Assembly: GCA_965223505.1 (NCBI GenBank) | Contig: CBDCWP010000036.1 | Location: 1-24,709 of the forward strand | Direction: 5' to 3' | Source: Planctomycetota bacterium | GTDB lineage: Bacteria > Planctomycetota > PLA2 > JAEUHO01 | Length of the DNA: 24,709 nt | Shown: positions 5,151-24,509 of the stretch, in pieces | How the letters are laid out: each line of letters opens with the position of its first letter | How positions within the stretch are numbered: position 1 is the stretch's first letter | Notes under the pieces: model-generated | What the model was told of the DNA's origin: nothing | What the model saw: only the letters and a program-made list of their open reading frames with translations | Databases searched by the model: none | Made by a program: the position numbers and the translations under genes

Positions 5151-6029
5151 TCAAGCGTGCGCTTCGGCGTCCGCGGCCGCCTCGAACAGCGCACGTACCC
5201 GCGTCGCCGTCGGACCGGCCTCGCCGGAGCCGACGTCGTGGCCGTCGATCGAGACGACGGGCAGGATGCCGCGAACGGACGAGGAGATGAACACCTCGTC
5301 CGCCGCGCGCAGGTCCGCGGGCGTCACGCGCTCCTCGCGCGCGTCGATCCCGTTCTCGGCGCACAGGTCCAGGATCCGCGTGCGCGTCGTGCCACGCAGG
5401 ATGCCGGCCTCCAACGGCGGCGTACGAAGACGACCGTCGGCGATCACGTAGACGTTGGCGGTCGTGGCCTCGGTGACGTCGCCGGACTCGTTGAGCATGA
5501 GCGCCTCGTCGGCGCCCTGAAGCCGTGCCTCGTGCAAGGCGAGCACGTTGTTGAGGTAGTTGCCCGTTTTCGCGGCCGGATCCAGCGCACGCGCGGAGTT
5601 GCGACGGCGTTCGACGAGCGCCGCCCGGAGTCCCTTCTCGAACTCCGCTCGTGTCGGACGGTTCGCAGGCGCCACGACGACGATGACGGTCAGCGGCGGC
5701 GCCTCCTCGAAACCGAGTCCCAACGGACCGGCGCCGCGCGTGACCATGAGGCGCACGTAGGCGTCGTCATCGCGGCCGACGCCGGCCGCCTCACACGTCG
5801 CATCGATCTGCGCGACGAGCGTGTCCCGCGGCACGTCGATCTCCAGATAGATCCGGCGACCCGACTCGCGCAGCCGGTCGAGGTGATCCTGCTCCTGGAT
5901 CAACGTGCCGTGGTGCCACCACAGCACCTCGTAGACGGAGTCGCCGTAGAGGAACCCGCGGTCGAGGACCGGCACGACGGCGTCCTCGGGCGCGGTGATC
6001 TTGCCGTTGACCGAGATGACCGTTTTCAC
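5151..6029 (-). CDS. PLP-dependent aminotransferase class IV (IlvE/Dat/PabC family)
   Basis: LDRGFLYGDSVYE, HLDRL, catalytic-Lys motif AKTGNYL, EATTANV, ILRGTTR, ADEVFISSS. Confidence 0.93.
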   Translation of the reverse strand: MKTVISVNGKITAPEDAVVPVLDRGFLYGDSVYEVLWWHHGTLIQEQDHLDRLRESGRRIYLEIDVPRDTLVAQIDATCEAAGVGRDDDAYVRLMVTRGAGPLGLGFEEAPPLTVIVVVAPANRPTRAEFEKGLRAALVERRRNSARALDPAAKTGNYLNNVLALHEARLQGADEALMLNESGDVTEATTANVYVIADGRLRTPPLEAGILRGTTRTRILDLCAENGIDAREERVTPADLRAADEVFISSSVRGILPVVSIDGHDVGSGEAGPTATRVRALFEAAADAEAHA

Positions 6030-6112: not shown

Positions 6113-6727
6113 ATGGCGGTTGCGCACGGCTGCGCAGCCGACGACGATGACGCCATGACAGGCAGTGCCGGCGACGAATTCGAGCAGACCTGCCTGCCCC
6201 TGCTGCCGGACTGCTATGCGTTCGCGTTGTCGCTCACCCGGCGAAGCCACGACGCCGAAGACCTGGTCCAGGAGACGTTCGTCCGAGCGCAACGCGCGTT
6301 CGCTTCCTTCACGCTCGGCACGAACGCGAAGGCGTGGCTGTTCACGATCCTCCGGCGCCTGCACATCGATCAATTCCGCCGCGCGCGCATCCGGCCCTCG
6401 ACCCTGCCGGAGGAGGAGCTGACGGACATGGCCGTCGGCGCCGCGGAAGACGCGGCGGAAGACACGCAGGAAGAGCTGCCGTGGGACGATCTTTCGCTCG
6501 AGACGCTGCGCGCGGCGATGGAAGCGATTCCGGAGCCCTTTCGCCTCGCCGTGAGGCTGCGGGACCTCGACGGGTTCAGCTATCGCGAGATCGGCGAGAT
6601 CCTCGACGTGCCGCCGGGCACCGTCATGAGCCGCCTGCACCGCGGGCGGGAATACCTCCGGCGGACCCTCGTTTCCCAGACGGAGCGGCCTCGCTCGGTT
6701 TCCGAGCGCCCGCCCGAGGCTCCATGA
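6113..6727 (+). CDS. ECF RNA polymerase sigma-70 factor, SigR/SigH-like (alternative start ATG 6155)
   Basis: Region 2 LTRRSHDAEDLVQETFVRA...FTLGTNAKAWLFTIL; region 4 LRDLDGFSYREIGEILDVPPGTVMSRLHRGR. Confidence 0.95.
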   Translation: MAVAHGCAADDDDAMTGSAGDEFEQTCLPLLPDCYAFALSLTRRSHDAEDLVQETFVRAQRAFASFTLGTNAKAWLFTILRRLHIDQFRRARIRPSTLPEEELTDMAVGAAEDAAEDTQEELPWDDLSLETLRAAMEAIPEPFRLAVRLRDLDGFSYREIGEILDVPPGTVMSRLHRGREYLRRTLVSQTERPRSVSERPPEAP

Positions 6728-7524
6728 TGGCGAACGAAGGGAACCGCTGGCACGACGACCCGCTCGAGGTGGACCGCTATCTCGACGGAGAGTGCACCGA
6801 CGACGAGCGCGCCGCGCGCGCTGCCGATCTCGACCGCGACGCCGCGCTGCGTCAGCGCGTCGACGCCCGCCGCGCGTTCCTCGACGCGCTGTCGGCGCAC
6901 GGCGAAGCCCGGCGCGCGTCCCTGCGCGCGCGCATGCCGGCGGGCCTGCCCGACCGCGTCACGTCGGCGCTGCGTAGACCGCGCGTTCCGTGGATGCGCT
7001 ACGCGGCGGCCGCGGTGCTCGTTCTCGGCGTCGGTGTCGCGCTGTCGACGTTCGCCACCGACGACGTCGAGGCGATTCCGCCGGCCGTCCTGGATGCCGC
7101 GCGCATCGCCGAGGACGGGTTCGACGCGCGTGAGTGGGAAGAGCTGGGCTGCGTCGAGGGCGAGACGAACCCGTACACGTTCCCGCCCGTGCGGTTGGGC
7201 GAGCTGTCGGTCGGCGGATGCCGGATGCCCGGCAGCGACGACGGGAAGACGGCGGCGCGGTTGGAGATCGACCTCGGCGAGACGACGTCCGTAGGCTACG
7301 TCGCGGTGCCGGAGAAGGGCACACGGCAGAGCGCCGACGTCGGCAAGACCGTGTTGGGCGACGTCGTCGTCTACGACATCCTCTACGGGCGTACCCGCTA
7401 CTACCTGGCGGTGCGAGCCGACGTGGTGAAGGAGCGCGGAGACTGCGCCGCGTGCCACAACAAGTCGCGCGAGGGACAGAAGAACCCCCACCGGATCGAG
7501 CTGCGAGCCTGGCGCCGTCGGTGA
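6724..7524 (+). CDS. Transmembrane anti-sigma factor with C-terminal CxxCH motif
   Basis: ATGA overlap with the sigma stop; N-terminal anti-sigma domain (VDRYLDGECTDDE), TM helix (YAAAAVLVLGVGVAL), extracytoplasmic domain ending in CAACH (7444-7458). Confidence 0.85.
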   Translation: MMANEGNRWHDDPLEVDRYLDGECTDDERAARAADLDRDAALRQRVDARRAFLDALSAHGEARRASLRARMPAGLPDRVTSALRRPRVPWMRYAAAAVLVLGVGVALSTFATDDVEAIPPAVLDAARIAEDGFDAREWEELGCVEGETNPYTFPPVRLGELSVGGCRMPGSDDGKTAARLEIDLGETTSVGYVAVPEKGTRQSADVGKTVLGDVVVYDILYGRTRYYLAVRADVVKERGDCAACHNKSREGQKNPHRIELRAWRRR

Positions 7525-7556: not shown

Positions 7557-8810
7557 GTGGCATCCGTCCATCTTCGTACCGGCGCAGAGACTGTCACGGT
7601 CGAGCTTCCGGACGATCTCGAGGTGCAGGTCGTCGAGCCCGCGCCGGTCGCGGCGTCGGACGATCCGCTCGGCCTGGTTGCCGCGGCCCTCGACCGGCCG
7701 ATCGATGCCGCGCCCCTCGTCGACGCCGCGCGCAACGTACGCTCCGCAGCGATCGTCGTTCCGGATCACACGCGTCCCGCGCCGACGCGGATGCTCCTGT
7801 TGCCCATTCTGGCGCGGCTTGCGCGGGCCGGTCTCGTCCCTGCGCAGATCGCGATCGTCGTCGCGCGCGGCATCCACACCGCCGCGCCGCGTCCGCATAT
7901 CGAGGCGGCGCTCGGCGCCGACATCATGTCCGAGCTGCGCCCGATCCAATCGGCCCCGAACACGCCGGAGATGAACGAGGAGATCGCGGTCGACACCGAC
8001 ATCGGGTCGATCCGCATTCACCGCGCCGTCGCGCGCGCCGAGCTCGTCGTGCTGACGGGCGCGGTCGCGCCGCACCATCTCGCCGGGTTCGGCGGCGGCC
8101 CGAAAGCGCTGGTGCCGGGCGTCGCGCAAGCCGAGACGGTTCACGCGGCGCACCGCTTGACGCTGGACGCGTTGGTGCGTCCGGACGGGTCGATCCGTCC
8201 GCTCACCGGCGCGATGGAAGGCAATCGCTTCCGCAACGCATTGCTGCGGGTGGCGCGGACCTTCGGGCGCACGTGGCTTTGCAACGTCGTTCTCAACGCG
8301 GAGGGCGCCATCGCGGCCGCGCGAGCCGGCGACGTCCAGCACGCGCACGAAGCGGCGGCGCGTTGCTGGACCGAGCTTCACGGGCTACCGGAGCCGGCGC
8401 CGGCCGACCTGGTGCTGGTGGGGACACCGGCGCCGCGCGACGTGGATCTGATCCAGGCGCACAAGTCGCTGCTGAGCGCCCACGGCTGGGCGAAGCCGGG
8501 CGCGCCGATCGTCTGGATGGCGCGGGCGCCGAACGGTCCGGGGCACCCGGACTTCCTGCCGTGGTTCGAGGCGGGCAAGCTGCCGCGCCATCTCGCTTCG
8601 CTGCGCGAGCACTTCCATCCGTACGGTCTGACCGCCTACAGCATTCGGCGGCTCGCGAAGCAGGATCATCCGGTGCACGTGGTCAGCGAGGTCTCGCGCG
8701 ACATCCTGCGACCGATGGGTCTGCTGCCGTTCGACGATGCGCAGAAGGCCGTGGCGTACGCGCTCGCGAACAACGACGTGAAGACCGTGGCGGTGCTTCC
8801 GGCGGGGTAG
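7557..8810 (+). CDS. larA: LarA-superfamily nickel-pincer-dependent alpha-hydroxy-acid racemase/epimerase (DUF2088)
   Basis: IVVPDHTRP, ARGIH, PHHLAGFGGGPKALVPG, HAAH and DLIQAHK correspond to conserved LarA motifs. Substrate is uncertain. Confidence 0.85.
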   Translation: MASVHLRTGAETVTVELPDDLEVQVVEPAPVAASDDPLGLVAAALDRPIDAAPLVDAARNVRSAAIVVPDHTRPAPTRMLLLPILARLARAGLVPAQIAIVVARGIHTAAPRPHIEAALGADIMSELRPIQSAPNTPEMNEEIAVDTDIGSIRIHRAVARAELVVLTGAVAPHHLAGFGGGPKALVPGVAQAETVHAAHRLTLDALVRPDGSIRPLTGAMEGNRFRNALLRVARTFGRTWLCNVVLNAEGAIAAARAGDVQHAHEAAARCWTELHGLPEPAPADLVLVGTPAPRDVDLIQAHKSLLSAHGWAKPGAPIVWMARAPNGPGHPDFLPWFEAGKLPRHLASLREHFHPYGLTAYSIRRLAKQDHPVHVVSEVSRDILRPMGLLPFDDAQKAVAYALANNDVKTVAVLPAG

Positions 8811-8875: not shown

Positions 8876-11263
8876 CTACTTCGACGCCGACTCGACGTCT
8901 CTCGAGGTCGCGGGTTCGTCCGGACCCTTCAGAACGAGATCCAATCGTTCTTGCAGGGCTTCTGCCGACTTGTCTTCGTACCACTTGGTGACATCCGCTC
9001 CGCGGCGGATGTTGCCCTTGCGATCGATGAACACCATGAACGGCTGCCGGTTGAGCGGAATGCCGAGCGACTCGATGATCTCATTGTTGACCGGGTTGTC
9101 TTCCTTGCGTGACAGATCGATCTTGAGGCGCTCGATCTTCGAGAAGCCGAGCCGGAGGTCGTCGTCGTCGAGAATGACCTTGTCGTACTGTATGCACTTC
9201 GCACACCAGGTCGCGGTCACCTTCACGGCGGTGGGCCGACCTTCTTCGACCGCTTGATTGACCCGGGCCACGAGGTCGTCGGTGCCCTCGAGCTTGGTCC
9301 ACTTGAGGTTGTCCGGGATGTCCGGCGGGCGCGTGAAGAACGCCACGAGTCCTGTGGCCACGACGAACATCAGCGCCACCTTCGCGCCGCGCATGTTGGC
9401 TTCGCCGGACGACTCGCCTTCCTTCCTCTGCAAGTGCATGGAGACACCGAGCCACGCTAGCAACGCACCGGCGAATCCGACGATGAACAACGTCGCCGGC
9501 GTGATCAGACCATTGTTGGCGACGTAAAAGAGCGCGCCGCCGAACAGGATCATGCCGAAACCGTAGCGAACCCAGACCATCCACGGGCCCGGGCGCATGG
9601 CGAAGTTCAGCGAACCGAAGGCGAAGAACACGGCGCCCATGCCGAGGCCCATGCTCATGAACATCAGGAATCCCATCACGGCGTCGCCGGTTTGGGCGGT
9701 GAAGAGCGCCATCCCCACGATGAACGGACCCGTGCAAGGGCTCGCAATGACGGCGGCGAGCGCGCCGAGAAGGAATGCGCCGACGAATGAGCCGCCGCGT
9801 TGCTGTGCGCCGCCCTGTACCTTCATCAGCCACTGCGGCGGCTGCAACTCGACGATGCCGAGCATGCCGACCGACAACAAAGCGAAAAGCCCGCCGATGC
9901 TCCAGATCACCGCGGGGATCTGGAACGCCGTCGAGAGACTCGCGCCGGTGAACGCGGAGATGATCCCCACGGCTCCGAAGGCCAGCGCCAGGCCGGTGAT
10001 GTAGGTCAGGAGCAGACTTGCGACGCGGCTCTTCGGGAGATCAGTGCGGCCGCCGGTTACGACTGCGACGGTGATTGGAATGATCGGAAGCACGCAGGGC
10101 GTGAACGCGAGGAGCACGCCGAAGAGGAAGATCGGGCCGAGGAACCACCAGCCGAGCTTGTCGAAGAGCTTCTGAACCTCGCCCTCCTCAGCCACGACTC
10201 CGAGCTTGTCTCCCTCGATCACGGGCAGGATGAGCTCGGCCTTCGGACCCTCCGCGGGCGCCGGATCGCTGGGCTCCTTCGTGCCGCCACCGGCGGCATC
10301 ACCCCACGTGGCGACGAGTGTCGCCTCGGACGGCAGGAGACAGTTCTCGTCGTTGCACGACTGCCAACCGGCCTTGATCTCGATGCGCTCGACGGACGCA
10401 TCACGTTCGAACTCGACCTCGACGCTCACGACCTCGCGAATCTCCTTCGCACCGCCGCCGTCGATCGTGACCTTCCCCCATCGCACGCCTTCGGCCTCGA
10501 CGGGCTCAACGGAGATCCCGATGTACGGATCGTTTCCGGGCCAGTAGAGGTTGTGCCCGAAATCGGGAATGAACGTGACGATCGCCTTGCCGCCCTTCTC
10601 GTCGACCTTCAGGGTGGCGGTGGCGCCGTTCTCGTTGAAGCGGGCGATCTCATCCTCGCCGTCCTTCTTCGGCTTGCCCACAACAGGAGGTGCGCCGGGC
10701 GCGCCGTCGCCGAACGGGACGCCGAACGGATTCCCGGCGGAGCCGCCGGTCTCGGCGCCACCACCGCCGAGCTTCGTCATGGCCGCATGGCCTTCGATCC
10801 GCTGATAGCACTGCTCGTCCGTGCACCCGCTGTAGTCGAACGCGAGGCCGATGGCGGTACCTGGCTTGACGCTCTTGGCGAGGTCGACCTTCACGACGAG
10901 CTCGAACGCCTTCTCGTAGACCATGTACTTGTCGCCGAACGTCGGATCGACCAGCTCGTGCGGTGCGGGCGTCGGCTTCACACCGTCGACGTGGTAGGTG
11001 ACGCCGTCGGCCTCGACCGGCTTCCACACCATGCCCTTGTAGCCGCCGCCGTCCTCGGCGTAGATGTGCAGCTTCGGGAAGAGGGTTGCCTTGATCTTGA
11101 GCGTCCCGCTCTGCCCGGGCGCGAGATCGGCCGGCTCCAGGGTCGCGGTGAGCTCGATGCGGCCGTCGCTCTCGTCCGCCTGGGCCGCGGGGAGCCCCGC
11201 CCAAGCCATGACCGCGATCGCGGCGGCAATCGCCGCCCAACGCACACCGTGGACCGTACGCAT
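8876..11263 (-). CDS. dsbD: Thiol:disulfide interchange protein DsbD-like, with two N-terminal DsbD-alpha-type domains
   Basis: Signal peptide; CTDEQC and CNDENC domains; TM domain with FTPCVLP and ASPCTGP; C-terminal thioredoxin TATWCAKC; SD GGAGG upstream of ATG. Confidence 0.9.
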   Translation of the reverse strand: MRTVHGVRWAAIAAAIAVMAWAGLPAAQADESDGRIELTATLEPADLAPGQSGTLKIKATLFPKLHIYAEDGGGYKGMVWKPVEADGVTYHVDGVKPTPAPHELVDPTFGDKYMVYEKAFELVVKVDLAKSVKPGTAIGLAFDYSGCTDEQCYQRIEGHAAMTKLGGGGAETGGSAGNPFGVPFGDGAPGAPPVVGKPKKDGEDEIARFNENGATATLKVDEKGGKAIVTFIPDFGHNLYWPGNDPYIGISVEPVEAEGVRWGKVTIDGGGAKEIREVVSVEVEFERDASVERIEIKAGWQSCNDENCLLPSEATLVATWGDAAGGGTKEPSDPAPAEGPKAELILPVIEGDKLGVVAEEGEVQKLFDKLGWWFLGPIFLFGVLLAFTPCVLPIIPITVAVVTGGRTDLPKSRVASLLLTYITGLALAFGAVGIISAFTGASLSTAFQIPAVIWSIGGLFALLSVGMLGIVELQPPQWLMKVQGGAQQRGGSFVGAFLLGALAAVIASPCTGPFIVGMALFTAQTGDAVMGFLMFMSMGLGMGAVFFAFGSLNFAMRPGPWMVWVRYGFGMILFGGALFYVANNGLITPATLFIVGFAGALLAWLGVSMHLQRKEGESSGEANMRGAKVALMFVVATGLVAFFTRPPDIPDNLKWTKLEGTDDLVARVNQAVEEGRPTAVKVTATWCAKCIQYDKVILDDDDLRLGFSKIERLKIDLSRKEDNPVNNEIIESLGIPLNRQPFMVFIDRKGNIRRGADVTKWYEDKSAEALQERLDLVLKGPDEPATSRDVESASK

Positions 11264-13108: not shown

Positions 13109-16100
13109 CTACCGACCCGACTTGAGGACCGAGAAGTTCGCGTTGCCGAGGCGAACGTGCGTCACGTTGCCCGTGGCCGGGTCGAAGTTGGCCTCGACGA
13201 GCTGCATGGCGTTGTTGTTGGTGGCGCCCGATCGGTACGCGTAGTAGTACTTCGTGCCACCGGTGTCGACCGCCATGCTGGCGCCCGCGCGACCGTTGTT
13301 GCCGTCGGACGTCTTCGAGTCCTGCGCGTTGTTGAAGCCGGCGCTGATCGCACCCGTCGTGGCGTCGAAGCCGATGTCACGAATGATGCCGATGCGCTCC
13401 CGGTCGTGGCGACGCGTCGAGCCGCCCGCGTTGTACTGGTAGATCATCCGCGTGCCGTCGTCGCTCACGATGATCGAGGTGACCGCCGTGCTCGACGTGC
13501 TGTTCAGGCTGGCAAGCCCGTCATGGTTCAGACGGGCGATCTCGCCGGCGACGTTCGGGTCGAACCCGAAGATCTGCCCGCCGCGGAAGCCCTCGTCAGC
13601 CCAGTAGGTCGCAGTCTCGGGACCGGACACCGCCGAGAAGCTGCTCGTACCGGTGAAGTTGTTGGGCCCGCGCCACTGGTAGTGAGCGGCGAAGAAGACC
13701 CACCCCGTGTCCTTCGCGACGACCTGTCGCGAGAACCCGGCCGAACGACCCGGCGCGTAGTACCGGAAGTCGAGCGCGTAGTGCGGGTAGTAGTGGTACC
13801 CCGGAAGGAAGCCGTACTGCTGCGGCCAACCGGTGAGCAGGAATCCACGGCCCGCCGTCTTCCCGTTGATGGAGGGACCCGTCAGCGAGGCGATGTTGAA
13901 CCCGATCAGCTGGTTGGCGGTCTGGTTCGAGCCCGAGACGGCGCTCATCGTGGTCACGTAGAAGAAGCGACCGTCGGTGGACTTGAAGCCGCCGATGGGA
14001 CGAATCACGCCCTTCGTGGTCGTGAAGTTCGTCGTCGCCGGGCTGAACGTGCTGGCGGTGTGGTTGCCGAGACCGCCGGAGATCGAGCTACCGCCCGCCG
14101 CCGTCGGCAGGGCGCCGAGCAACGTGTTGGAGTTGAAGTTCCACGAGAAGTACGTTCCCGAGAAGTGGAACGAGCGCTGGGGCGGATCGTTGCCCGACGT
14201 GCTCGCGCTCGTCGCGCCGCGGTTGCTGTACCCGGCCCAGAAGAGCAGCCCGTCGCCGTCCTTCGTGAACACCAGTGAGCCGAAGCGCCAGATGATGGCG
14301 CTTGCGAACCGGTTGGACGTGATATCGACTTCGGACGCGCTCGTCCAGCCGTTCGTCGTAGAGCACGCGAGGACCTTCTGGTCGTACGCCGCCCACGCGC
14401 TGGAGTTGCTGGGGCTCACGCTGGCCGTCGTGTCGTGGCAGACGAAGGCGATGCGATCGCCCTGCTCGTTGATCTCCAGACCCGGGGTGGGCCCGGTGTA
14501 GGTGCCCCAGTGGCGGTAGCTGTTCGGTCCGCGCGAGAGCCCGTAGCCGCGGCCGCCGCCCATCGTTGCGCGACGCGCCGTCGAGTTGGTGGACACCTGG
14601 CGGAAGCCGGCGCCGTTCGGATCCACCCACGCGTACATGCGGTAGAGCTCCACGGAGCTACCGGACGTCGTCGTCCGCGGACCGGCCAGCATGGCGCAGT
14701 GATCGCCGTTCCAGTTGATCCGGAACGGAGCCGGCGCCTGGTCGTTCTCCATGAAGTTCGCACCGTCGAACAGGTGCATCTCGTCGTTGGTCGTCGTGTT
14801 GAACGTCGTGCCGGACGAGCTGAACGAGGAGACCGTGCTGAACGCGGAGTCCCACTTGTGGAACGTCGTCTGCATCGGCGTCGTCGCGTTCTGCGTCCAG
14901 TTCGCACCGCTTCCCGGCGCCAGCGCGCCGGCAGCGACGCCGCTCAGGATCTCGTAGCGCATGATGAAGTGGTCGCGGTACGAGGCATGGTAGCCGTCGT
15001 AGCAGCCAATGAGGTAGTAGAGGTACTCGTTCGTCATCGCCATGGCGGTGGCGTACTGGATCTCGTCGCTCGTCGTCGAGACCACCGCCCCCGCGCCGGG
15101 CTCGATGATCACGTACGTCCGGCCGCCGGGGAAGACCGTCTCGCCCGTGAGCGAGAAGATGGCCATTCGCGTGCTGTTGGCGTGCTCGTCGCGGTAGCTC
15201 GTGCTGGTCGTCGGGGAAACGGTGTGCAGCTTGCACACGGCGAATCGACCGTCGGGGCTCACCGCGATCTGCAACATGCGCGTCGCACTGTGGCGGTTCG
15301 CCGCCTTCGTCTGGACCATCGAATCGCCGAAGGACTGGTAGGTCCCCTTGTCGATCGCGAACGGGACGTAGATCTTCGCGGTGTTGCGAATGATGAAGAA
15401 GCCGAAGCGATTGTTGCTCTCGAACGCGTAGAGATGACCGCCGTCCGCGTACACGCCGGACGCCTTGTTGAAGGTGCCCTTGGCGACGCCGGGAACGTTG
15501 TCCGCGTTCGGAAGGTCGACGCAACTCGTGCTCGGCTGGTAGTTGCCCGAGAACCTGTAGCCGTTGCCGATCCAGGTCCGACCGTGCTGCGAGTCGCCCT
15601 TCTGGGCCGGCCGGGCGGCGTTGGCGTTGACCGCCGACATGTCGTCCCAGCACCCGGTCGGGTTGACCGCGACGCGCAGGATGTCGATGTTCGGATCGCC
15701 GCCGGCCGCGCCGCTGATGAGCTTGCCGACGTCATACGGGCCGAGGCCCACGGCAGGAGGCAGCGTGCCGATCAGGTCGCCGCCGGCGGCCTCCGCCACA
15801 CCGTCGCTCAGGTTGTTGACCAGGCCCGCGCCGCCGATCACCTGCAGCTTGCGAACCCGCTGCTGGTACTCGTTCATCGTGTACTGACCGGCGCTGGTCG
15901 TCGTGGTCGCCGTGTCCGACGTGCTGCTCTCCGTGATGATCACGGTGTCCGGGCCGACGCTGAGGCCGAAGTGGCCGGACGTGATGTTGGTGCAACCACC
16001 GGGCCCCGTCGGAAGCTGCTGATCGGCGACTGTCAGCTCGATGATCTGGCGGCCCTGTGACTGCATGATGGCCTGGTTGACGACGGCGAGGACGCCGGAG

Positions 16101-17704
16101 TCGAAGCCGCCGGGCGAAACGAGGTCGATGCCGGGCGGCTGCGAAGAGCCGGCCGCGGGCGGCGTCGGATCCCAGTCGACGGTCCAGCTGTAGAGGCCCG
16201 TCGGCTCGCCGTTGACGAACACCTGGCTGAGCAGGGGACCGTCGCTCACGCCGTCGTACGGAACGCCGCCGCGGCAGAGCAGTTGCAGGCCCTGCGGTCC
16301 GTGGGTCGCGATGTCCGGGTTGTAGATCTGGCCGACCTCGAACTCGGGCAGCGTGTTGTACTTCGGGCCGCCCACCTGGACGCCCTCGCTCGTGAACGCG
16401 TAGTCGATGCCGAACGGATCCGGCGGCAGCGGAAGCGGGAGCGCGTCCTCGCTCTTGCAGATCTGGAAGGTGTAGTCCTTGAAGGCGTGCTGGCCGCGCT
16501 CGTTCGGAACGAGCGAGCTATACGCATGGACGTAGATCGTGAAGGTGCCTACCCGGCGCGGAATGCCGCTGAACGTGCCGAGGGCCGGACCGAAGTCGCC
16601 CATCGCCAGACCTTCCGGCGGGAAGGGCGCGTAGTTCGGGCCGAGGTCGGCCGGCGCCGGATAGGTCGCCGGGCTGCCGACGCCGAGCACGTTGCTCGCC
16701 AGGCCCGTCGCGTCGATCGAGAAGCCGGTGCCGTTCAGGTCGGCGTTGATCGTCGGCGCAAGCGGCGAGTTGAACGAAATGTTGTCGAGCGGATCCGGTA
16801 CGTCGTCCGTCAGGTCGAACAGGAACGGCGGGACGCCGTCGACGAGCTGGATCGGCTCGGAGTAGATCGTGCCGGCGCGGCCCTTGGGCAGCGTCTCGGT
16901 CGCGATGATGATCGGGGGCGTGTCGACCTTCCACTGGAGCTTGCGGGTCGAGGAGTTGCCGATCGAGTCCGTGATCTGGAACGTGAACCGGAACGGCGCG
17001 CCGCCGGGGCCGACCTGGCCGGGCTGGCCGACGAGGCTGCAGGAGCCGGGCGGGTTCACGACGCCCAACGGAAGCGTCGCGCTGTCGAACTGATCGAGCG
17101 GATCGTCGATGAGGTCGCAGGAGTACGGCGGAACGCCGCCGGCGCCGATCAGGTCGATCGCGGCGAACTGGCCGAAGACGACGGTCTCGAGCGCGTCGGC
17201 GTCGTTGAACTTCTGCGGGTCGGTGTAGTCGGCCACCGGAATGATCGCCGGGCTCGCCGCGACGATCTGCACCGGACCGATGCCCACGTCCATCACGAAG
17301 GGCATGGTCGTCGTCAGGAACGGGGTGCAGCTCGTATCGGTGATCTGAATGACGAACTCGAAGTGTCCGTCCTCGAGGAAGATCCCCGTCAGGTGGTGAC
17401 GGTGGTTGTTGCCGACCGGATCCGCGGTGTCGTCCGTCGCGATGCCGTCGGGCATGCCGCCGTTGACGCCGGGCGAGATCACCTGGACCACGTACGGGCC
17501 GCCGCATCCGCCATCGATCGGGATCTCGAAATCGAACTGCTGGCCGGACTCGAGTCCGGGAGGCAGGCTCGCGCTCGTGATGACCAGCGGGTTCAGCGCT
17601 GCGCGGAACCCCTTCCCGCTACCACAAGCCGGCAACGCAATCAGCGTGACGGCGATCAAGCCGACCCACGCGAATTTCAATGTGCTCTTGGTGAAATTAG
17701 GCAT
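13109..17704 (-). CDS. Large (1531 aa) lipoprotein with about four putative-Ig (He_PIG-like) domains and a beta-rich C-terminal region
   Basis: Lipobox LPA-C27; repeats ITSASLPPG..GGCGGPY, GAGGVPPY, IATETLPKG..DGVPPF, LPEFEVG..RGGVP; propeller-like motifs (AVSPDGRF, FTKDGDGL, STDGRFFY, VSDDGTRM); SD GGAGAGG. Confidence 0.85.
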   Translation of the reverse strand: MPNFTKSTLKFAWVGLIAVTLIALPACGSGKGFRAALNPLVITSASLPPGLESGQQFDFEIPIDGGCGGPYVVQVISPGVNGGMPDGIATDDTADPVGNNHRHHLTGIFLEDGHFEFVIQITDTSCTPFLTTTMPFVMDVGIGPVQIVAASPAIIPVADYTDPQKFNDADALETVVFGQFAAIDLIGAGGVPPYSCDLIDDPLDQFDSATLPLGVVNPPGSCSLVGQPGQVGPGGAPFRFTFQITDSIGNSSTRKLQWKVDTPPIIIATETLPKGRAGTIYSEPIQLVDGVPPFLFDLTDDVPDPLDNISFNSPLAPTINADLNGTGFSIDATGLASNVLGVGSPATYPAPADLGPNYAPFPPEGLAMGDFGPALGTFSGIPRRVGTFTIYVHAYSSLVPNERGQHAFKDYTFQICKSEDALPLPLPPDPFGIDYAFTSEGVQVGGPKYNTLPEFEVGQIYNPDIATHGPQGLQLLCRGGVPYDGVSDGPLLSQVFVNGEPTGLYSWTVDWDPTPPAAGSSQPPGIDLVSPGGFDSGVLAVVNQAIMQSQGRQIIELTVADQQLPTGPGGCTNITSGHFGLSVGPDTVIITESSTSDTATTTTSAGQYTMNEYQQRVRKLQVIGGAGLVNNLSDGVAEAAGGDLIGTLPPAVGLGPYDVGKLISGAAGGDPNIDILRVAVNPTGCWDDMSAVNANAARPAQKGDSQHGRTWIGNGYRFSGNYQPSTSCVDLPNADNVPGVAKGTFNKASGVYADGGHLYAFESNNRFGFFIIRNTAKIYVPFAIDKGTYQSFGDSMVQTKAANRHSATRMLQIAVSPDGRFAVCKLHTVSPTTSTSYRDEHANSTRMAIFSLTGETVFPGGRTYVIIEPGAGAVVSTTSDEIQYATAMAMTNEYLYYLIGCYDGYHASYRDHFIMRYEILSGVAAGALAPGSGANWTQNATTPMQTTFHKWDSAFSTVSSFSSSGTTFNTTTNDEMHLFDGANFMENDQAPAPFRINWNGDHCAMLAGPRTTTSGSSVELYRMYAWVDPNGAGFRQVSTNSTARRATMGGGRGYGLSRGPNSYRHWGTYTGPTPGLEINEQGDRIAFVCHDTTASVSPSNSSAWAAYDQKVLACSTTNGWTSASEVDITSNRFASAIIWRFGSLVFTKDGDGLLFWAGYSNRGATSASTSGNDPPQRSFHFSGTYFSWNFNSNTLLGALPTAAGGSSISGGLGNHTASTFSPATTNFTTTKGVIRPIGGFKSTDGRFFYVTTMSAVSGSNQTANQLIGFNIASLTGPSINGKTAGRGFLLTGWPQQYGFLPGYHYYPHYALDFRYYAPGRSAGFSRQVVAKDTGWVFFAAHYQWRGPNNFTGTSSFSAVSGPETATYWADEGFRGGQIFGFDPNVAGEIARLNHDGLASLNSTSSTAVTSIIVSDDGTRMIYQYNAGGSTRRHDRERIGIIRDIGFDATTGAISAGFNNAQDSKTSDGNNGRAGASMAVDTGGTKYYYAYRSGATNNNAMQLVEANFDPATGNVTHVRLGNANFSVLKSGR

Positions 17705-18197: not shown

Positions 18198-19769
18198 CTA
18201 GGGAAGCACCCCGAGCGCCTGCGCCGCGTCGTGCGCCCAGTCGAAGAAGGGCGGCATGAAGACGCCCATGACCAGCATGCCCACGATCCCGACCCAAAGC
18301 ACCGTCTTCGCCGAGGCGGGAATGCCGATCGGTTGCAGCTCGTGCTCGTCTTCCGGAGACGCGAAGTACATGTCCTTGATCCACACGAGATAGAAGTAGA
18401 GCGAGATGACGACGCCGATCGCGCCGACGATCGCCAACGTGTACAGCCCCTTGTCCACCGCGGCGTTCAGCAGCAGGAACTTCCCGAAGAAGCCCGACAT
18501 CGGCGGCACGCCGGCGAGCGAGAGCAGCGAGAGCGCCATCGCCAACGCGAGGAACGGCGAACGCTTCCAGAGACCGTGATACGCCTGCGACTCGTGCGTG
18601 CCCATGACGCCGCCCACGAGCATGACGACCGTGAAGGCGGTGACCGACGTGACGATGTACGCCATGAGGTAGAAGAGGATGGCACTCGTGCCCGTCACGG
18701 CTTCGCCGAGGGGCGTCGCGCCGTCGCCGGCCCCCTGCGCGATGGCGGCGAAGCCCATGAGCAGATAGCCGGCGTGGCCGATCGACGAGTAGGCCAGCAT
18801 GCGCTTGATCGAACGCTGCGGCAGCGCGCCGAGCGTGCCGAACAGCAGCGTCACGATCGCCGCCGCGCCGAGCAGCGGCACCCAGCTCGTCAGGCTCTCC
18901 GGATTCGCGGCGAGCGCGGGCATGACCGCGGCCTGCATGAGCCGCAGCATCAGGATCAGGCCGGCGCCCTTCGACGCGGTGGCCAGGAACGCGGTCACCG
19001 GCGTGGGCGCGCCCTGATACACGTCCGGAATCCAGACGTGGAACGGAACGCCGCCGATCTTGAAGAACAGGCCGACGAACATCAGGCCCAGGCCCGCGAT
19101 CAGCAGCGCGTCGACCGCGCCGTCGGTCGCGACGACGCGCGAGAGCACCTCGAAGGACAGGCTGCCCGTCGCGCCGTAGGTGAACGCGATGCCCAGCAGC
19201 AGCAATGCCGTGGAGACGGCGCCGATGACCAGGTACTTGAGCCCGGCCTCGGTCGACTTGAGATCGTTGCGCTTGAACGCCGCGAGGATGTACGCGCTGA
19301 TCGTGACGAGCTCCAGGCAGATGAACAGCGTCAACAGGTCCGACACGCCCGAGACGAGCATGACGCCCGCCAGCGCGAACATCAGCAGCGCGTAGAACTC
19401 GCCGTGGCCCTTGTCCATGCGGCGCGTGTAGCCCATCGAGAGCAACACGAGCAGCATGCCGCCGGCGACGGTGAGGACGCGGCAAAAGATCGAGAAATCG
19501 TCCGAGCGCCAGCCGGTCAGCTGGGTGCCGTCGTCGGCGTCCGTGACGAGCATGGCCACGCCGGTCATCTGCTCGACCGGCATGAAGACGAGCAGGAGGA
19601 ACGCGATCGCGAGCCCGGCGAGACAGGACGTCGCCGTCGCGACGGCGCGGCGGCCGGCCGGCAGCATGAGCTCGGTGACGACGGCGCCCAGGCCGGCCCC
19701 GATCACGATGAACTCCGGCAGGAGCAGGCGCAGGTTGAGGTTGTCGGTGATGTGGGCCAGGAACGTCAC
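18198..19769 (-). CDS. nuoN: NADH-quinone oxidoreductase subunit N
   Basis: LFICLEL, STEAGLKY, FKIGGVPFHVWIPDVYQGAPTPVTAFL, KRMLAYSSIGHAGY, SLAGVPPMSGFFGK. Confidence 0.96.
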   Translation of the reverse strand: MTFLAHITDNLNLRLLLPEFIVIGAGLGAVVTELMLPAGRRAVATATSCLAGLAIAFLLLVFMPVEQMTGVAMLVTDADDGTQLTGWRSDDFSIFCRVLTVAGGMLLVLLSMGYTRRMDKGHGEFYALLMFALAGVMLVSGVSDLLTLFICLELVTISAYILAAFKRNDLKSTEAGLKYLVIGAVSTALLLLGIAFTYGATGSLSFEVLSRVVATDGAVDALLIAGLGLMFVGLFFKIGGVPFHVWIPDVYQGAPTPVTAFLATASKGAGLILMLRLMQAAVMPALAANPESLTSWVPLLGAAAIVTLLFGTLGALPQRSIKRMLAYSSIGHAGYLLMGFAAIAQGAGDGATPLGEAVTGTSAILFYLMAYIVTSVTAFTVVMLVGGVMGTHESQAYHGLWKRSPFLALAMALSLLSLAGVPPMSGFFGKFLLLNAAVDKGLYTLAIVGAIGVVISLYFYLVWIKDMYFASPEDEHELQPIGIPASAKTVLWVGIVGMLVMGVFMPPFFDWAHDAAQALGVLP

Positions 19770-21409
19770 TTCGCGTCCCCCTCGGCGCCGGTCTCCTCGA
19801 GCGGGCGCGCGACGTCCCCCATCTCCAGGACCACGCCGGACTTACGCGTGTCGGTGAGCTCGGGCGGGTCGTCGAGCCGGTCCATGAGCGGCGTCGTGCC
19901 CTGCTCGATGACGTCGATCATCGGCTGCGGGTAGAAACCGAAGAAGACGAGCACCGCGATCAAGATCACGTACGGCGCCTTCTCGACCGGCGTGCGCGCG
20001 TCCTTGAGCTTCTCCCAGCGCGGCGAGATCTCACCGAACCAGGCGTCCTTGACGGCGCGCAGCAGGTAGACACCGGTGATGACGAGGCCCCAGACGGCGA
20101 GGATCGCCGGCACCTTCGTGATCAGCGTCGTGCTCTCCCACGCCGCGATGATCACCATCAGCTCGCTGGCGAAGTTCGCGAAGCCCGGCAGGCCGGCCGA
20201 CGCCATCGACGCGATGATGAAGCACGTACCGGCGAACGGCATCACCTTCATCAGGCCGCCGAGGTCGTCGAGCATGCGCGTGTGCGCCTGGTCGTAGAAC
20301 CAACCGATGAGCGAGAAGGCCAGGGCCGTCATGATGCCGTGCGCGAACATCAGGAACACGGCGCCTTCCATACCGATGGCGGTCATGGAGGCGATGCCGA
20401 GCAGCACGTAGCCCATGTGGCTCGACGACGAGTAGCCGATGATCAGCTTCATGTCGCGTTGCGACACGGCGACGAGGCCGCCGTAGACGATGTTCATGCA
20501 GCAGATCAACCCGACGTACGGCAGGTAGAACTCGGCCGCGTGCGGGAAGTAGGTGAGCGCGATGCGCAGGATACCGAAGGCGCCGAGCTTCATGAGCACG
20601 CCCGCGTGCAGCATCGAGACGGCGGCGGGCGCCGCGGCGTGGCCCGCCGGGCTCCAGGAATGCAGCGGCCACATCGGAACCAGGCTGCCGAAGCCGATGA
20701 AGATCACCGGGAACCACAGCATCTGGAAGCTCGCGTCGAAGTCGACGGTCTCCAGAAGCACCATGTTGAAGGTGCCGTAGCCGAGCGCGCTCGCGGACTC
20801 GGTGTAGGTCGCGATAAGGCCGACGAGCGCGAACACGGCGCCCGTGCTCAGCAGCAGCACCAGCTTCATGGTCGCGTACTTCTGATCGACGGTGCGGGTG
20901 GTGCTGCCCCAGATCCCGATCAACAGGAACATGGGGATCACGGCCAGCTCGTAGAAGAAGTAGTAGAAGAACAGATCGAGCGACATGAAGACGCCGAAGA
21001 CGCCGGTCACCAGCGCCATCAGCGAGATGTAGTACTCCTTGACCCGCGTTCGGATCGTGTAGGAGACCATCACGCCGCAGAATATGATGAACGCCGTCAG
21101 CAGGACCATCGCCATGCCGATGCCGTCCACGCCGATGAAGAACGACAGGTCCAGGACGTCGCGGTCGATCCACTGGATCTTCTGCGTGTGCTTGTAGACG
21201 TGCTCGACGCCCGAGGCCGACGAGACGACGCCGTCTGCGCCGGGCGGCGCGTCGTGGAAGCCGATGAACAGCACCAGCGACGTCACGAGCGCGATGCCCG
21301 TCGCGACCGTGCAGATCGCGCGCACCAGGCGGTCGTTGCCGTCCTTGACCCAAAACAGCAGGAGGGCCGCGATCGCGGGCGCCAGAAGGATGATCAGCAG
21401 CGGACTCAT
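19766..21409 (-). CDS. nuoM: NADH-quinone oxidoreductase subunit M
   Basis: GVDG, FFYELAVIPMFLLIGIWG, PLHSW, AGVLMKLG, YSSSSHMG, GLPGFANFASE; 4-nt overlap with nuoN. Confidence 0.95.
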   Translation of the reverse strand: MSPLLIILLAPAIAALLLFWVKDGNDRLVRAICTVATGIALVTSLVLFIGFHDAPPGADGVVSSASGVEHVYKHTQKIQWIDRDVLDLSFFIGVDGIGMAMVLLTAFIIFCGVMVSYTIRTRVKEYYISLMALVTGVFGVFMSLDLFFYYFFYELAVIPMFLLIGIWGSTTRTVDQKYATMKLVLLLSTGAVFALVGLIATYTESASALGYGTFNMVLLETVDFDASFQMLWFPVIFIGFGSLVPMWPLHSWSPAGHAAAPAAVSMLHAGVLMKLGAFGILRIALTYFPHAAEFYLPYVGLICCMNIVYGGLVAVSQRDMKLIIGYSSSSHMGYVLLGIASMTAIGMEGAVFLMFAHGIMTALAFSLIGWFYDQAHTRMLDDLGGLMKVMPFAGTCFIIASMASAGLPGFANFASELMVIIAAWESTTLITKVPAILAVWGLVITGVYLLRAVKDAWFGEISPRWEKLKDARTPVEKAPYVILIAVLVFFGFYPQPMIDVIEQGTTPLMDRLDDPPELTDTRKSGVVLEMGDVARPLEETGAEGDAK

Positions 21410-21417
21410 CTACCTCC

Positions 21418-23475
21418 CTAGTGCGTCACGACCTGGATGAGCACGAGGCACAGGACCACCGCGGCCCCGAGCACGAACGACGTCACGTAGCCGTTCAACC
21501 GGCCCGTCTGCGCGCGGCGCAGGCTGTCGCCTCCGACGCGGAAGAGCTGCGCGGTGCCGTTCACGAGCGCCTGGATGACGACCCAGCGCTCGAACCACCA
21601 GCACACCTTCGCGATGCCCTGCTGCACGCTCTTCACGAGCCAGAGATAGAACGTGTCGATGTAGTACAGCCGGTCCCACAGCGTCCACAGCGGACCCAGT
21701 TTCGTCTTGAGCGGGTCGTCCTCGAGGGACGGCGCTCGGTAGTACACCACGTACGCGAGCGCCAGCCCGGCCAGCGCGACCACGGTCGAGATCAGCGCCA
21801 CCGACATGTGGAACTCGGCCGGTCCGCCGACGTGCCACGCGTGCAGGAAGTGCTCGAAGCGGTTGTTCTGTCCAGGAATGCCGACGAAGCCGATGAACAC
21901 GCTGAAGATCGCGAGGACCCACAGCGGGACCGTCATGACCTTCGGGCTCTCGTGCACGTCCGCATGGCCGCGGTAGTCGCGGAAGAACGTCAGGATCCAC
22001 GCGCGGCCCATGTAGAAGGCCGTCATGCCGGCGACCAGCGTGCCGAGGCCCCAGAGCGGCATGGCGCCCCAGACCTGGTTGCTGTTCTGAACCGCGCCGA
22101 GGATCTCGTCCTTCGACCAGAATCCCGCGAGTGGGAAGATGCCGCACAACGCCAGCGTGCCGATCGCCCACGTCAGGTGCGTGGACTTCATCTTCGTGCG
22201 CAGGCCGCCCATCTGGAACATGTCCTGCTCGTGGTGGCAGCCGTGGATGACGCTGCCGGCGCACAGGAAGAGCAGCGCCTTGAAGAAGGCGTGCGTCGTC
22301 AGGTGGAACATCGCGGCGGTGTACGAGCCGGCGCCGAGCGCCATCGCCATGTAGCCGAGCTGCGAAAGCGTCGAGTAGGCGAGCACCTTCTTGATGTCGC
22401 GCTGGGTGATCGCCATCGTCGCGGCGATGAACGCCGTGATGCCGCCGAGCCACGCGAGCAACGTCGGCGCCCACGACACGTTGTCGAAGAGGAAGTAGCA
22501 GCGGATGATCATGTAGATGCCGGCCGCGACCATGGTGGCGGCGTGCATCAGCGCGGAGACGGGCGTCGGGCCTTCCATGGCGTCGGGCAGCCACACGTGC
22601 AGCGGGAACTGGGCGCTCTTGCCCATCGCGCCGCAGAAGACGAGCGCGGCCGCGATCGCAGCCCAGACGGCGCCGTCGAACAAGACCGTCGGCTCCCAGC
22701 TCTGAACGGCGCTGCCGATCACGCTGAAGTCGAACGCGCCGTACTTCGAGATCGCCGGCGCGAGCGCGGCGACCTTGTCGGCCCCGAGCTCGGCCACCCG
22801 CGCGGCGTCCGTGACGTCGAGCAGCCCTCCCACGGCCGCCCACACCATCAGGATGCCGAGCAGGAACCCGAAGTCGCCGACGCGGTTCGTGAGGAACGCC
22901 TTCTTGGCGGCCTCGCCCGCGGAGTGCTTCTTCCAGTAGTAGCCGATCAGCAGGTACGAAGACGCGCCCACCAGCTCCCAGAAGATGAACGTCTGGAAGA
23001 AGTTGGGCGAGAGCACGATGCCGAGCATCGAGAACACGAAGAGCGAGAACTTGGCGAAGAAGCGGCCCTCGCTCGGGTCGCCGTGCATGTAGCCGCGCGC
23101 GTAGACGAAGATCGCCAGCCCGACACCGGTGACGACGAGCGTCATGTTGAGCGACAGCGCGTCCAGGCGGGTGCCGAACGTGATCTTCAGGTCGTCGCCG
23201 ACCACGATCCAGTTGACGATGTACTCGTACACGTCGCCCGCGGCGGCGCCGCCCGTCAGGTGCGGCACGAAGTAGTAGAAGAACGTGATGCAGAAGCCGA
23301 GCGCGACGCCGCCGATGGCGAGCAACCCGGCCAACGAGTTGTTCTTGCGCAGCGCCGGCAGGCAGGTGATGAGCACCGCGACGAACAGCGGCGTGAACAG
23401 CACGAGCCACGGCGCCCAGGACGCGAAGCCCTCGGTCACGAACGTGCCCGCGTCGGCGGCCAGGAAGGACGGCAT
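21418..23475 (-). CDS. nuoL: NADH-quinone oxidoreductase subunit L
   Basis: FIFWELVG, KAFLTNRVGDFG, GKSAQFPLHVWLPDAMEGPTPVSALMHAATMV, DIKKVLAYST. Confidence 0.97.
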   Translation of the reverse strand: MPSFLAADAGTFVTEGFASWAPWLVLFTPLFVAVLITCLPALRKNNSLAGLLAIGGVALGFCITFFYYFVPHLTGGAAAGDVYEYIVNWIVVGDDLKITFGTRLDALSLNMTLVVTGVGLAIFVYARGYMHGDPSEGRFFAKFSLFVFSMLGIVLSPNFFQTFIFWELVGASSYLLIGYYWKKHSAGEAAKKAFLTNRVGDFGFLLGILMVWAAVGGLLDVTDAARVAELGADKVAALAPAISKYGAFDFSVIGSAVQSWEPTVLFDGAVWAAIAAALVFCGAMGKSAQFPLHVWLPDAMEGPTPVSALMHAATMVAAGIYMIIRCYFLFDNVSWAPTLLAWLGGITAFIAATMAITQRDIKKVLAYSTLSQLGYMAMALGAGSYTAAMFHLTTHAFFKALLFLCAGSVIHGCHHEQDMFQMGGLRTKMKSTHLTWAIGTLALCGIFPLAGFWSKDEILGAVQNSNQVWGAMPLWGLGTLVAGMTAFYMGRAWILTFFRDYRGHADVHESPKVMTVPLWVLAIFSVFIGFVGIPGQNNRFEHFLHAWHVGGPAEFHMSVALISTVVALAGLALAYVVYYRAPSLEDDPLKTKLGPLWTLWDRLYYIDTFYLWLVKSVQQGIAKVCWWFERWVVIQALVNGTAQLFRVGGDSLRRAQTGRLNGYVTSFVLGAAVVLCLVLIQVVTH

Positions 23476-23937
23476 CTAGGCGTTCCCTCCCTCGAGCGCG
23501 TCGAGCGCGGCCGCCACGCCCTCGGCGTGCTCGTCTTCCGGCCTTGGCTCTTCGTCGTGGTGGTGGTCCTCGCCCTCCAGCTTGAGCGTGGGCACGGGGC
23601 CGTAGTCGACCTCGTGCAGCTCGCGCGCCTCGTTGACGTCCGTGGTCTGCCGCAGGCGGAAGACGGCGATGACGATCGCGAGCCCGACCGCGACCTCGGC
23701 GGCGGCGACGGTCATCGCGAAGAAGACGAACACCTGGCCGTCGAGGTTGGCGTGCACGCGCGAGAAGGCGACCAGCGCCAGGTTCGCCGCGTTCAGCATG
23801 ATCTCGACGGACAGCAGCATGATCAGGATGTTGCGGCGGCAGGTCACGCCGACGAGCCCGACGGCGAACAGCGCGATGGCCAGGGCGACCACGCGCTCGA
23901 GCGGCACGGTCGTCGCGAGACTGAGCAGCGCGGCCAT
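23476..23937 (-). CDS. nuoK: NADH-quinone oxidoreductase subunit K with C-terminal extension
   Basis: [20 protein letters not shown] and [11 protein letters not shown]; start ATG 23937 overlaps the nuoJ stop. Confidence 0.94.
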
Positions 23938-24509
23938 CACGTCAGCCTCCGCTTCGTGAGGATGACGGCGCCGAGGATCGCCCCGAGCAGCAGGATCGAG
24001 GTGACCTCGAACGACAGCAGCCACGTCTCGAAGATCTGCTCGCCGATGGCCTCCGCGCCGCCGTCGAGCTCCGCGCCGGCCGTGGCCTTGGCGAAGTGCT
24101 GCGGCTCGACGACGCCTGTCTCGGGCGGGTTCGGCTGCGCCGCGTCGACGAGCCGTTGGTCGTCGGCGCCGACCGCGGTGATGAGCGCGTACATGCCCAG
24201 CACGAGCAGCGCGCCGGAGGCGATCACGCCGAGGACGGGCACCCGCGGCGCCGGCGCGTCCTCGAGAGACTCCTTGCGCAGGTCCATCAGCATGATCACG
24301 AAGAGGAACAGCACCATGATGGCGCCCGCGTAGACCAGGACCTGCACGACGGCGACGAAGTACGCCTCCAACAAGACGTAGTTGGCCGCCAGTCCGAAGA
24401 ACATCAGGACGAGCCAGAGCGCCGACACGACGACGTTCTTCCGTGTCACCGCCAGGACGGCGGCGGCCAGCGAAGCGAGGCCGAAGACATAGAAGAGAAT
24501 CGTCGTCAT
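23937..24509 (-). CDS. nuoJ: NADH-quinone oxidoreductase subunit J
   Basis: [19 protein letters not shown] and FEVTSILLL. Confidence 0.95.

Follow-up and report, generated by a model that had tools for sequence, protein, structure and literature searches.

A predicted periplasmic heme-c anti-sigma factor paired with a SigH/SigR-like ECF sigma factor in one family of Planctomycetota

A two-gene locus of a planctomycete was found to encode a form of class I anti-sigma signalling that is real, new and confined to one lineage. A SigH/SigR-like ECF sigma factor is followed by a membrane-anchored anti-sigma factor in which the ligands of the usual zinc motif are replaced and a heme-c attachment motif (CxxCH) is invariant in a predicted periplasmic domain. 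The locus lies in the window, i.e., the whole analysed stretch of 24,709 nucleotides, which is contig C36 of a genome of 5.15 Mb (92% complete). The sigma ORF (6113-6727) overlaps the anti-sigma ORF (6724-7524, 266 aa) via ATGA. Both ORFs, as well as the residues and motifs listed in an earlier sequence-only reading of this DNA, were found where claimed when ORFs and translations were checked. The features of the locus, all on the forward (+) strand, are:

6120..6148, +, predicted housekeeping sigma70-type promoter of the sigma gene (-35 TTGCGC, 17 nt, -10 GACGAT)
6155..6727, +, ECF sigma factor, SigH/SigR-like, 190 aa (ORF open to 6113; Pfam Sigma70_r2 and r4_2)
6724..7524, +, membrane-anchored anti-sigma factor, 266 aa (57-row family alignment; sigma directly upstream)
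6745..6975, +, cytoplasmic class I anti-sigma domain, approximately residues 8-84 (fold, complex model, hhalign)
6826-6849, +, former zinc-ligand positions D35/D39/L42 (hhalign to ZAS relatives)
7003..7053, +, single transmembrane helix, residues 94-110 (hydropathy and positive-inside rule; N-terminal side basic)
7066..7074, +, Val-Glu-Ala 115-117, candidate signal-peptidase-I site-1 motif ([AVTS]-x-A conservation)
7075..7521, +, predicted periplasmic alpha/beta domain with Cys143 and Cys166 (AF2 pLDDT 89.6, pTM 0.86)
7444..7458, +, CAACH heme-c attachment motif, C241/C244/H245 (invariant in 57/57)
7483..7491, +, NPH, with His256 as candidate distal heme ligand (P255 and H256 invariant in 57/57)

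The likeness of the sigma factor to SigR and SigH, which had been read from the sequence before, was borne out by profile searches: the top NCBIfam match is TIGR02947 (SigH_actino) with 147 bits at a cut-off of 251.55, and the top PDB match is SigH of M. tuberculosis (E 7.7e-41). Within the genome it is the strongest match to TIGR02947 (146.7 bits vs 103.5 for the next), and no other predicted gene combines a GTNxKAWL-type with a GTVMSRLHRGR-type motif. Judged by these scores the protein is SigH/SigR-like, yet it falls below the curated TIGR02947 cut-off and hence is not a member by it. Its start, formerly placed at 6113, is likelier to be 6155, because a sigma70-type arrangement TTGCGC-17-GACGAT-6-ATG recurs in the orthologues. 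With the predicted -10 element GACGAT only 6 nt ahead of the ATG at 6155, the sigma mRNA is likely leaderless. A -10-like hexamer was present 6-8 nt ahead of an in-frame start at 16/19 orthologous sigma loci, eight of these 16 with TTGCnn at 16-17 nt in the -35 position, and genome-wide a TAnnnT peak was observed 6 nt before starts (146 genes vs about 10 at neighbouring positions). Because of these recurring hexamers and the genome-wide peak, the sigma gene looks as if it were driven by the housekeeping sigma factor. Inspection of the orthologous loci revealed no conserved ECF-type site upstream of the sigma gene, so that autoregulation is not supported.

The second protein is almost certainly an anti-sigma factor, an identity that had been proposed from the sequence and is now carried by fold matches, by a modelled complex with the sigma factor and by profile alignment to ZAS anti-sigma factors. 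Pfam yielded no match with the protein as query and no family present in more than 5/57 of the family members. The AlphaFold model (pLDDT 89) was used for a structural search, in which the N-terminal part matched RslA (rank 1; Z 6.0, rmsd 4.9, 62 aligned), RsiW (rank 3; Z 5.3, rmsd 5.1, 69 aligned) and RskA (rank 9; Z 4.6, rmsd 8.4, 72 aligned), values of Z 6.0-4.6 being modest for helical domains. Co-folding of the sigma factor with anti-sigma residues 5-90 gave a score of 0.76 against 0.00 for the best control, a pass that may stem from resemblance to ECF complexes already solved; the mark applied is reached by 116/157 solved pairs and by 2/215 mismatched pairs. Contacts agreed to at least 91% between runs and the partner had a pLDDT of at least 86, and the model supports binding of the sigma factor by the anti-sigma factor. 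Synteny with an ECF gene, a check that the sequence-only reading had asked for, was complete: the sigma gene is located directly upstream of the anti-sigma gene in 20/20 loci with upstream DNA, and three more loci start at contig ends.

The anti-sigma factor has YLDGE at residues 19-23 and DLDRDAAL at residues 35-42, and the latter had been described as standing in the place of HxxxCxxC. This replacement holds for the entire family. In an hhalign comparison of the family with the ZAS anti-sigma factors of the nearest sigma relatives (probability 94%, E 1.1e-7), D35, D39 and L42 sit on the H, C and C of HxxxCxxC, with the homology running through the membrane helix, and HxxxCxxC was found in the first 100 residues of 0/57 family rows.

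A membrane helix is present in 53/57 rows, the other four being fragments of the outer domain; the AF2 helix comprises residues 89-110. A single helix was counted in 51 of these 53 rows, and an excess of positive charge on the N-terminal side likewise in 51. Because of the single helix and the positive-inside pattern in 51/53 rows, CxxCH is predicted to be periplasmic in an N-in/C-out protein, in accordance with the single helix and external C-terminus assumed earlier.

For the family alignment, three homologue searches were combined into 74 distinct proteins, 56 of which were aligned with the query to give 57 rows. The 18 proteins left out were the self-hit, five short C-terminal fragments, four N-terminal fragments and eight weak N-terminal-only matches of other types; all five short C-terminal fragments carry CxxCH...PH. 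The residues C166, G207, D218, C241, C244, H245, P255, H256 and R261 are invariant in the 57 rows and C143 is kept in 56/57. The conservation of CxxCH, on which the idea of a heme had been staked, is thus complete in the alignment, and the motif is also found in 23/23 genome-derived members, a set overlapping the 57 rows. Homologues chosen by similarity favour cysteine motifs, yet identity to the query drops to 25% (range of the aligned homologues 25-54%). About 2.6e-4 CxxCH motifs would be expected by chance in a 155-aa domain of the analysed genome. We consider a covalent c-type heme on the periplasmic domain probable.

In the model, the outer domain is built from a helix followed by a sheet of six strands, the CxxCH helix, the NPH loop and a last strand. 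The two further cysteines lie in LGCVE (C143) and GGCRMP (C166) and are likely joined by a disulfide. CAACH occupies residues 241-245 and NPH residues 254-256, and the spacing of the two histidines amounts to 11 (48 rows), 13 (eight rows) or 9 (one row). Two residues had been named as candidates for the distal heme ligand. The His of NPH keeps this status with H256 invariant in 57/57 rows, and a bis-His ligation by His245 and His256 is likely on these grounds. The Met of CRMP (M168) is not conserved and was discarded as a family-wide ligand. Since His256 is the likely sixth ligand, sensing of O2 or NO is less likely than sensing of redox state or heme occupancy. A gas sensor, in which NO or CO would displace His256 and thereby release the sigma factor, could draw on the position of this His within a loop of 11 residues close to the C-terminus and on periplasmic c-heme sensor domains of signalling proteins, for which a passage in PMC12889525 describes NO-sensor properties. 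The NO-binding example in that paper lacks a protein sixth ligand, whereas the second His is invariant here, and no Cache or Tll0287 chain was among the best 50 structural-search matches listed; we regard gas sensing as unlikely.

Absence of cytochrome c maturation genes would have spoken against the heme from the outset. The genome contains System II: a ResB-like and a CcsA-like gene with a WWD-type motif adjoin on contig C7, and PF05140 and PF01578 both score above cut-off at these adjacent genes. Moreover, 70 predicted genes with CxxCH comprise 168 motifs compared with approximately 2.3 expected, and ten control motifs gave 5-25. A CcsA-like gene occurs in 39/40 genomes of the class, including 22/23 with the anti-sigma gene; because it is present in 39/40, its co-occurrence with the anti-sigma factor does not discriminate. 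Maturation genes and CxxCH richness permit the attachment of heme, without proving it. Of the refuting conditions named in the sequence-only reading, those open to computation all failed to materialise.

The same cysteines could serve another chemistry. Cys241 and Cys244 might form a disulfide, or build a Zn, Cu or Ni site together with His245 and His256, and the domain would then sense thiol redox state or a metal rather than carry heme. A Cys/His zinc anti-sigma factor as the ancestral type fits this idea, as do the conserved neighbours of the pair, a DsbD gene and a LarA-like gene of the nickel-pincer family, and the lack of any matched cytochrome fold. Genomes lacking the pair nevertheless retain these neighbours, and the LarA-like gene is equipped with a -10-like hexamer of its own; the exact spacing of CxxCH is invariant, the motif is on the predicted outer side and the genome is rich in c-type cytochromes. 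An alternative without heme appears clearly unlikely in comparison with the c-type heme. DsbD, the LarA-like gene and an aminotransferase were not counted among the parts of the system, given their persistence without the pair, and by eye the orthologous loci showed no conserved ECF site ahead of dsbD.

The fold of the outer domain was approached by several routes. The top structural match is the C-terminal domain of MucB/RseB (Z 5.5, rmsd 4.0, 92 aligned), a modest score, and a further RseB/MucB C-terminal domain matched with Z 4.6, rmsd 3.8 and 88 aligned, the identities of the two being 8-12%. Both RseB and MucB act as stand-alone proteins of the periplasm and lack a heme motif. Foldseek at E 0.001 returned no match for either of the two anti-sigma models, no cytochrome c or Cache chain was among the best 50 structural-search matches listed, and a PDB profile search with the anti-sigma factor gave only designed helical proteins (E >3). 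The PF11845 profile matched only one of the 57 members (E 0.009), and hhalign against 26 planctomycete PF11845 members aligned only 12 columns around the motif. Two assignments were rejected: local likeness to a Tll0287-like protein encoded in the genome (E 0.013) shrank to the motif alone, and similarity to COG5662, presumably the RsiW/PrtR-like domain, was not significant. Longer, fused forms of the domain were not found among 8000 candidates, which is weak evidence. In the ESM Atlas, an Acidobacteriota cluster appeared at 0.92, and DUF3379 and anti-sigma fragments at 0.79-0.86.

The 2682 leader genes were scanned with the SigH-type promoter pattern at nine spacers, each giving 3-9 matches. 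At the 18-nt spacer seven of the 2682 leader genes matched, three of them multiheme (Fisher p 1.6e-4 with 46 leaders carrying CxxCH, this being one of nine spacers). These three multiheme genes were put to orthologue comparison. In the family of C21:59620-62277 (886 aa, five CxxCH, TPR repeats) GGAAT-16/17-CGTT stands upstream in 16/17 full-length orthologues, and in the family of C39:27667-29751 (695 aa, four CxxCH) in 4/4, compared with 23/42000 shuffled windows. G or C follows GGAAT in 20/20 of these conserved sites, in keeping with the SigR consensus GGGAAT(G/C)-16-(C/G)GTTG as quoted in a passage of PMC3489674. The multiheme gene at C44:2541 was ruled out as a target, its site being present in only 1/25 orthologues.

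The sites largely follow the pair. Sixteen genomes with the pair encode full-length C21 orthologues, as does one further genome (G018, 86% complete), in which the pair and the LarA-like neighbour were not found, yet target sites are present. A gene encoding a HEAT-repeat membrane protein (C30:244354-245898) has the site in 12/17 genomes with the pair and in 0/4 without, plus G018; five genomes with the pair are without the site, one of them with only 94 nt upstream. Within one genus the site of this gene is present in the two members that kept the pair (G010 and G011) and missing in G012, which is missing the pair: in this genome (94% complete) the flanking genes are separated by about 310 bp that contain no sigma and no anti-sigma gene, whereas the two congeners retain both. 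Distant paralogues showed site-like matches within 1500 nt in 3/6 loci from genomes with the pair vs 1/14 from genomes without. The genomes compared are kin, and counts of sites are not independent. Genome-wide the promoter pattern is not enriched (34 matches vs 30-53 for wrong spacers), and the regulon is small for this reason. Nine sites are intergenic, and the three of these that were taken to the orthologue comparison held. Recognition of GGAAT(G/C)-CGTT sites by the sigma factor of the pair is likely, since conserved sites track the pair, and there is a high probability that it controls the predicted regulon including the multiheme cytochrome genes.

How the signal might pass the membrane is suggested by the linker following the helix. 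[AVTS]-x-A was found at 115-117, in one aligned register, in 48/55 rows with letters, while no other triplet in positions 105-134 reached more than 11 rows; among the zinc-motif relatives the loose motif occurs in 4/20. The genome encodes signal peptidase I and an M50 protease. Cleavage of RsiV at site 1 by signal peptidase, with the anti-sigma factor itself being the sensor, is described in a passage of PMC4183432, and PMC8844934 contains a further precedent for site-1 cleavage of an anti-sigma factor by signal peptidase (RsiP). On the other hand, the motif is mostly followed by a hydrophobic residue, whereas D, E or G prevails at this position in the signal-peptide-like N-termini of the genome, and by eye Ala-x-Ala also follows the helix in at least 3/12 further anti-sigma-like proteins encoded in it. 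Because of the atypical +1 residue and these similar triplets the motif may be structural rather than a cleavage site. Gating of the anti-sigma factor by signal peptidase, argued by analogy, is a serious possibility to which we give slightly less than an even chance.

A related alternative holds that the heme is structural, or that the domain is constitutively cut off as a small soluble cytochrome, and that the signal enters via a separate protease or partner as in RseB/MucB with DegS. The resemblance to the C-terminal domain of MucB/RseB, a protein-binding module, the Ala-x-Ala motif in the linker joining two helices of the AF2 model and a passage in PMC7406223, according to which zinc motifs of membrane-bound anti-sigma factors may be structural, are compatible with such a role. 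Constitutive cleavage would likely leave the sigma factor permanently free, though, relatives of similar architecture are without the periplasmic motif (0/20), and the predicted targets are c-type cytochromes themselves, which fits heme-linked sensing; the structural or released heme is a fairly unlikely explanation.

We favour, by a little better than an even chance, a heme-gated proteolytic switch that reads the redox state or the loading of the heme and controls multiheme cytochrome genes. The anti-sigma factor would hold the SigH/SigR-like sigma factor at the inner face of the membrane, and the System II synthase would attach heme to CAACH, motif and machinery being encoded in the genome. 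The holo bis-His domain would be folded and shield the linker past the membrane helix. A changed oxidation or ligation of the heme, or failed heme loading, would loosen the periplasmic domain, upon which signal peptidase I or another site-1 protease could cut near Val-Glu-Ala 117 and the M50 protease would then cut the stub; motif and protease genes are present, and cleavage and its direction are modelled on RsiV and RsiP. The released sigma factor would read GGAAT(G/C)-15/16-CGTT promoters, the sites themselves being conserved and their assignment to this sigma factor presumptive, in front of two families of membrane-anchored cytochromes with 4-5 hemes and of the HEAT-repeat membrane protein. 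Taken in its most specific form the proposal is tentative, with less than an even chance: the anti-sigma factor would be a mono-heme c-type cytochrome that has traded the zinc switch for a periplasmic bis-His heme, would be cut by signal peptidase only upon a change of the heme, and would read periplasmic redox state or the success of cytochrome c maturation in a feedback loop from a SigR-type sigma factor to multiheme cytochromes.

Several known systems share parts of this architecture. SigR/RsrA of Streptomyces coelicolor and SigH/RshA of mycobacteria and corynebacteria are the best matches of the sigma factor and have the anti-sigma gene at +1 as well, and the consensus quoted for SigR fits the conserved target sites of the planctomycete pair. 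In contrast to the SigR/SigH systems, the predicted planctomycete targets encode cytochromes instead of thioredoxins, and a site of this type was not seen ahead of the sigma gene. ECF12 anti-sigma factors are described in a passage of PMC7826278 as having a zinc finger and being 96% soluble, whereas the planctomycete protein differs from RsrA and RshA by the lack of HxxxCxxC (0/57), a membrane helix and a CxxCH domain. The single-helix class I anti-sigma factors RslA, RsiW, RskA, MucA, ECF206/207 and the planctomycete ZAS+TM partners are alike in the N-terminal fold; in the planctomycete form described here other residues stand in for the zinc ligands, and the C-terminal part additionally bears CxxCH...PH. 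RsiV of Bacillus subtilis and RsiP of Bacillus thuringiensis are analogous to the planctomycete protein in that a motif of the signal-peptidase type directly follows the membrane helix on its outer side, but respond to lysozyme or a beta-lactam signal. RseB/MucB share the modest top structural match of the periplasmic domain.

To our knowledge, no ECF system is known to sense via heme covalently bound to the anti-sigma factor itself. Full-text literature searches for a heme-c or CxxCH anti-sigma factor found none among the papers listed, in line with the earlier remark that no characterised anti-sigma factor has such an architecture. None of the nine mentions of cytochrome in the supplement of PMC7826278 concerns an anti-sigma domain, and CxxCH is absent from the available part of this source. 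Extracytoplasmic mono-heme CxxCH on a sensor scaffold is found in sCache_heme/Tll0287-like proteins (PF11845) and in Geobacter GSU0582/GSU0935 (PMC12889525). The output of the PF11845 heme-c sensors covered in the available part of PMC12889525 is different, i.e., kinases, chemoreceptors and c-di-GMP enzymes instead of a sigma factor, and the word sigma is absent from the main text on heme-c Cache sensors as available. If the reading is true, a heme-c input is added to ECF signalling, with one protein as readout of periplasmic redox state or heme maturation, and the pair would be an undescribed link from extracytoplasmic heme or redox status to gene expression. With the predicted target promoters the system can be tested in a laboratory host, and the organism itself need not be cultured; the promoters also give a handle on the stimuli of uncharacterised planctomycete multiheme cytochromes.

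The distribution of the pair is narrow. A full-length anti-sigma gene was detected in 23/40 genomes of the class, all of one Planctomycetota family, where 22/28 relatives within the family carry it compared with 0/11 in the sister family, and the outer-domain profile matched in 9/301 genomes of the phylum, all of the same family. For the search of sigma relatives outside the family the same 301 genomes were used, and loci were obtained for 22. The downstream gene of these nearest relatives encodes HxxxCxxC in 22/22, the choice of ORFs at these loci having favoured those with the zinc motif, and 20/22 are long membrane-type proteins; CxxCH outside the zinc motif occurs in none of the 22. In a quick tree of 51 sigma factors, 19 sigma factors of the family (support 100) and the 22 relatives (support 98) join at an unsettled fork. 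Compared by hhalign with the ZAS+TM relatives, the strands of the outer domain align in order at a level that is not significant (E 0.08-0.16). The simplest reading of these data would be that the zinc ligands were lost and the heme motif was gained. The proposed shift away from a cytoplasmic ZAS sensor stands as far as the lost ZAS ligands are concerned, but not with regard to a soluble RsrA as its start: because 20/22 of the nearest sigma relatives pair with membrane-bound ZAS anti-sigma factors, a change from ZAS+TM to heme+TM is the likely origin.

Two genes predicted to be targets of the pair's sigma factor (the SigH/SigR-like ECF sigma encoded with the CxxCH-bearing anti-sigma) belong to multiheme cytochrome families, and four further genes follow an intergenic match, seen in the source genome, to the GGAAT-16/17-CGTT pattern and may be candidate targets:

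C21:59620-62277, minus strand: predicted target
C39:27667-29751, minus strand: predicted target
C1:14709-16868, C12:19487-21436, C31:19158-20426 and C44:109114-112200: genes with a further upstream site

Both predicted target proteins possess hydrophobic N-termini bearing His, 4-5 CxxCH motifs and c554/c7-like matches, and one of the two contains TPR repeats. Near the N-terminus of the sigma factor itself (window 6191-6214, plus strand), the family consensus reads CLPxLPDCY, a Cys-x5-Cys pattern in which both Cys vary among members and which represents a possible thiol site.

Downstream of the pair, the window encodes the following features:

7557-8810, plus strand: LarA-like gene (nickel-pincer racemase superfamily), scoring below every NCBIfam cut-off
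8876-11263, minus strand: large 795-aa DsbD whose N-terminal region is extended
13109-17704, minus strand: exported-looking 1531-aa protein without a Pfam match
18198-24509, minus strand: series of hydrophobic ORFs, read by eye from the ORF list

The LarA-like gene adjoins the pair conservedly in relatives, yet it is retained in genomes lacking the pair. Locus comparison revealed that dsbD is convergent with it in most relatives, and DsbD is a likely reductant source for cytochrome c maturation. The 1531-aa protein is kept near the pair's locus in many relatives (30-45% identity), and the hydrophobic ORFs read like the NADH dehydrogenase membrane subunits NuoJ-K-L-M-N.

Many genes of the source genome, among them the aminotransferase IV and LarA-like neighbours of the pair, carry a TAnnnT hexamer 6-9 nt ahead of their start codon; genome-wide, 146 genes have it at 6 nt. 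Judged from this position, many genes appear leaderless. Examples in the window are:

5151-6029, minus strand
6155, plus strand
7557, plus strand

The sole Tll0287-like gene of the genome is located on contig C13 (267 kb), which may be foreign or mis-binned (GC 61% vs. 63-70% in other contigs). On contig C33, the gene immediately preceding another ECF sigma/single-TM anti-sigma pair encodes signal peptidase I:

C33:55846-57429, minus strand: signal peptidase I gene
C33:55062-55706 and C33:54461-55012, same strand: second sigma/anti-sigma pair
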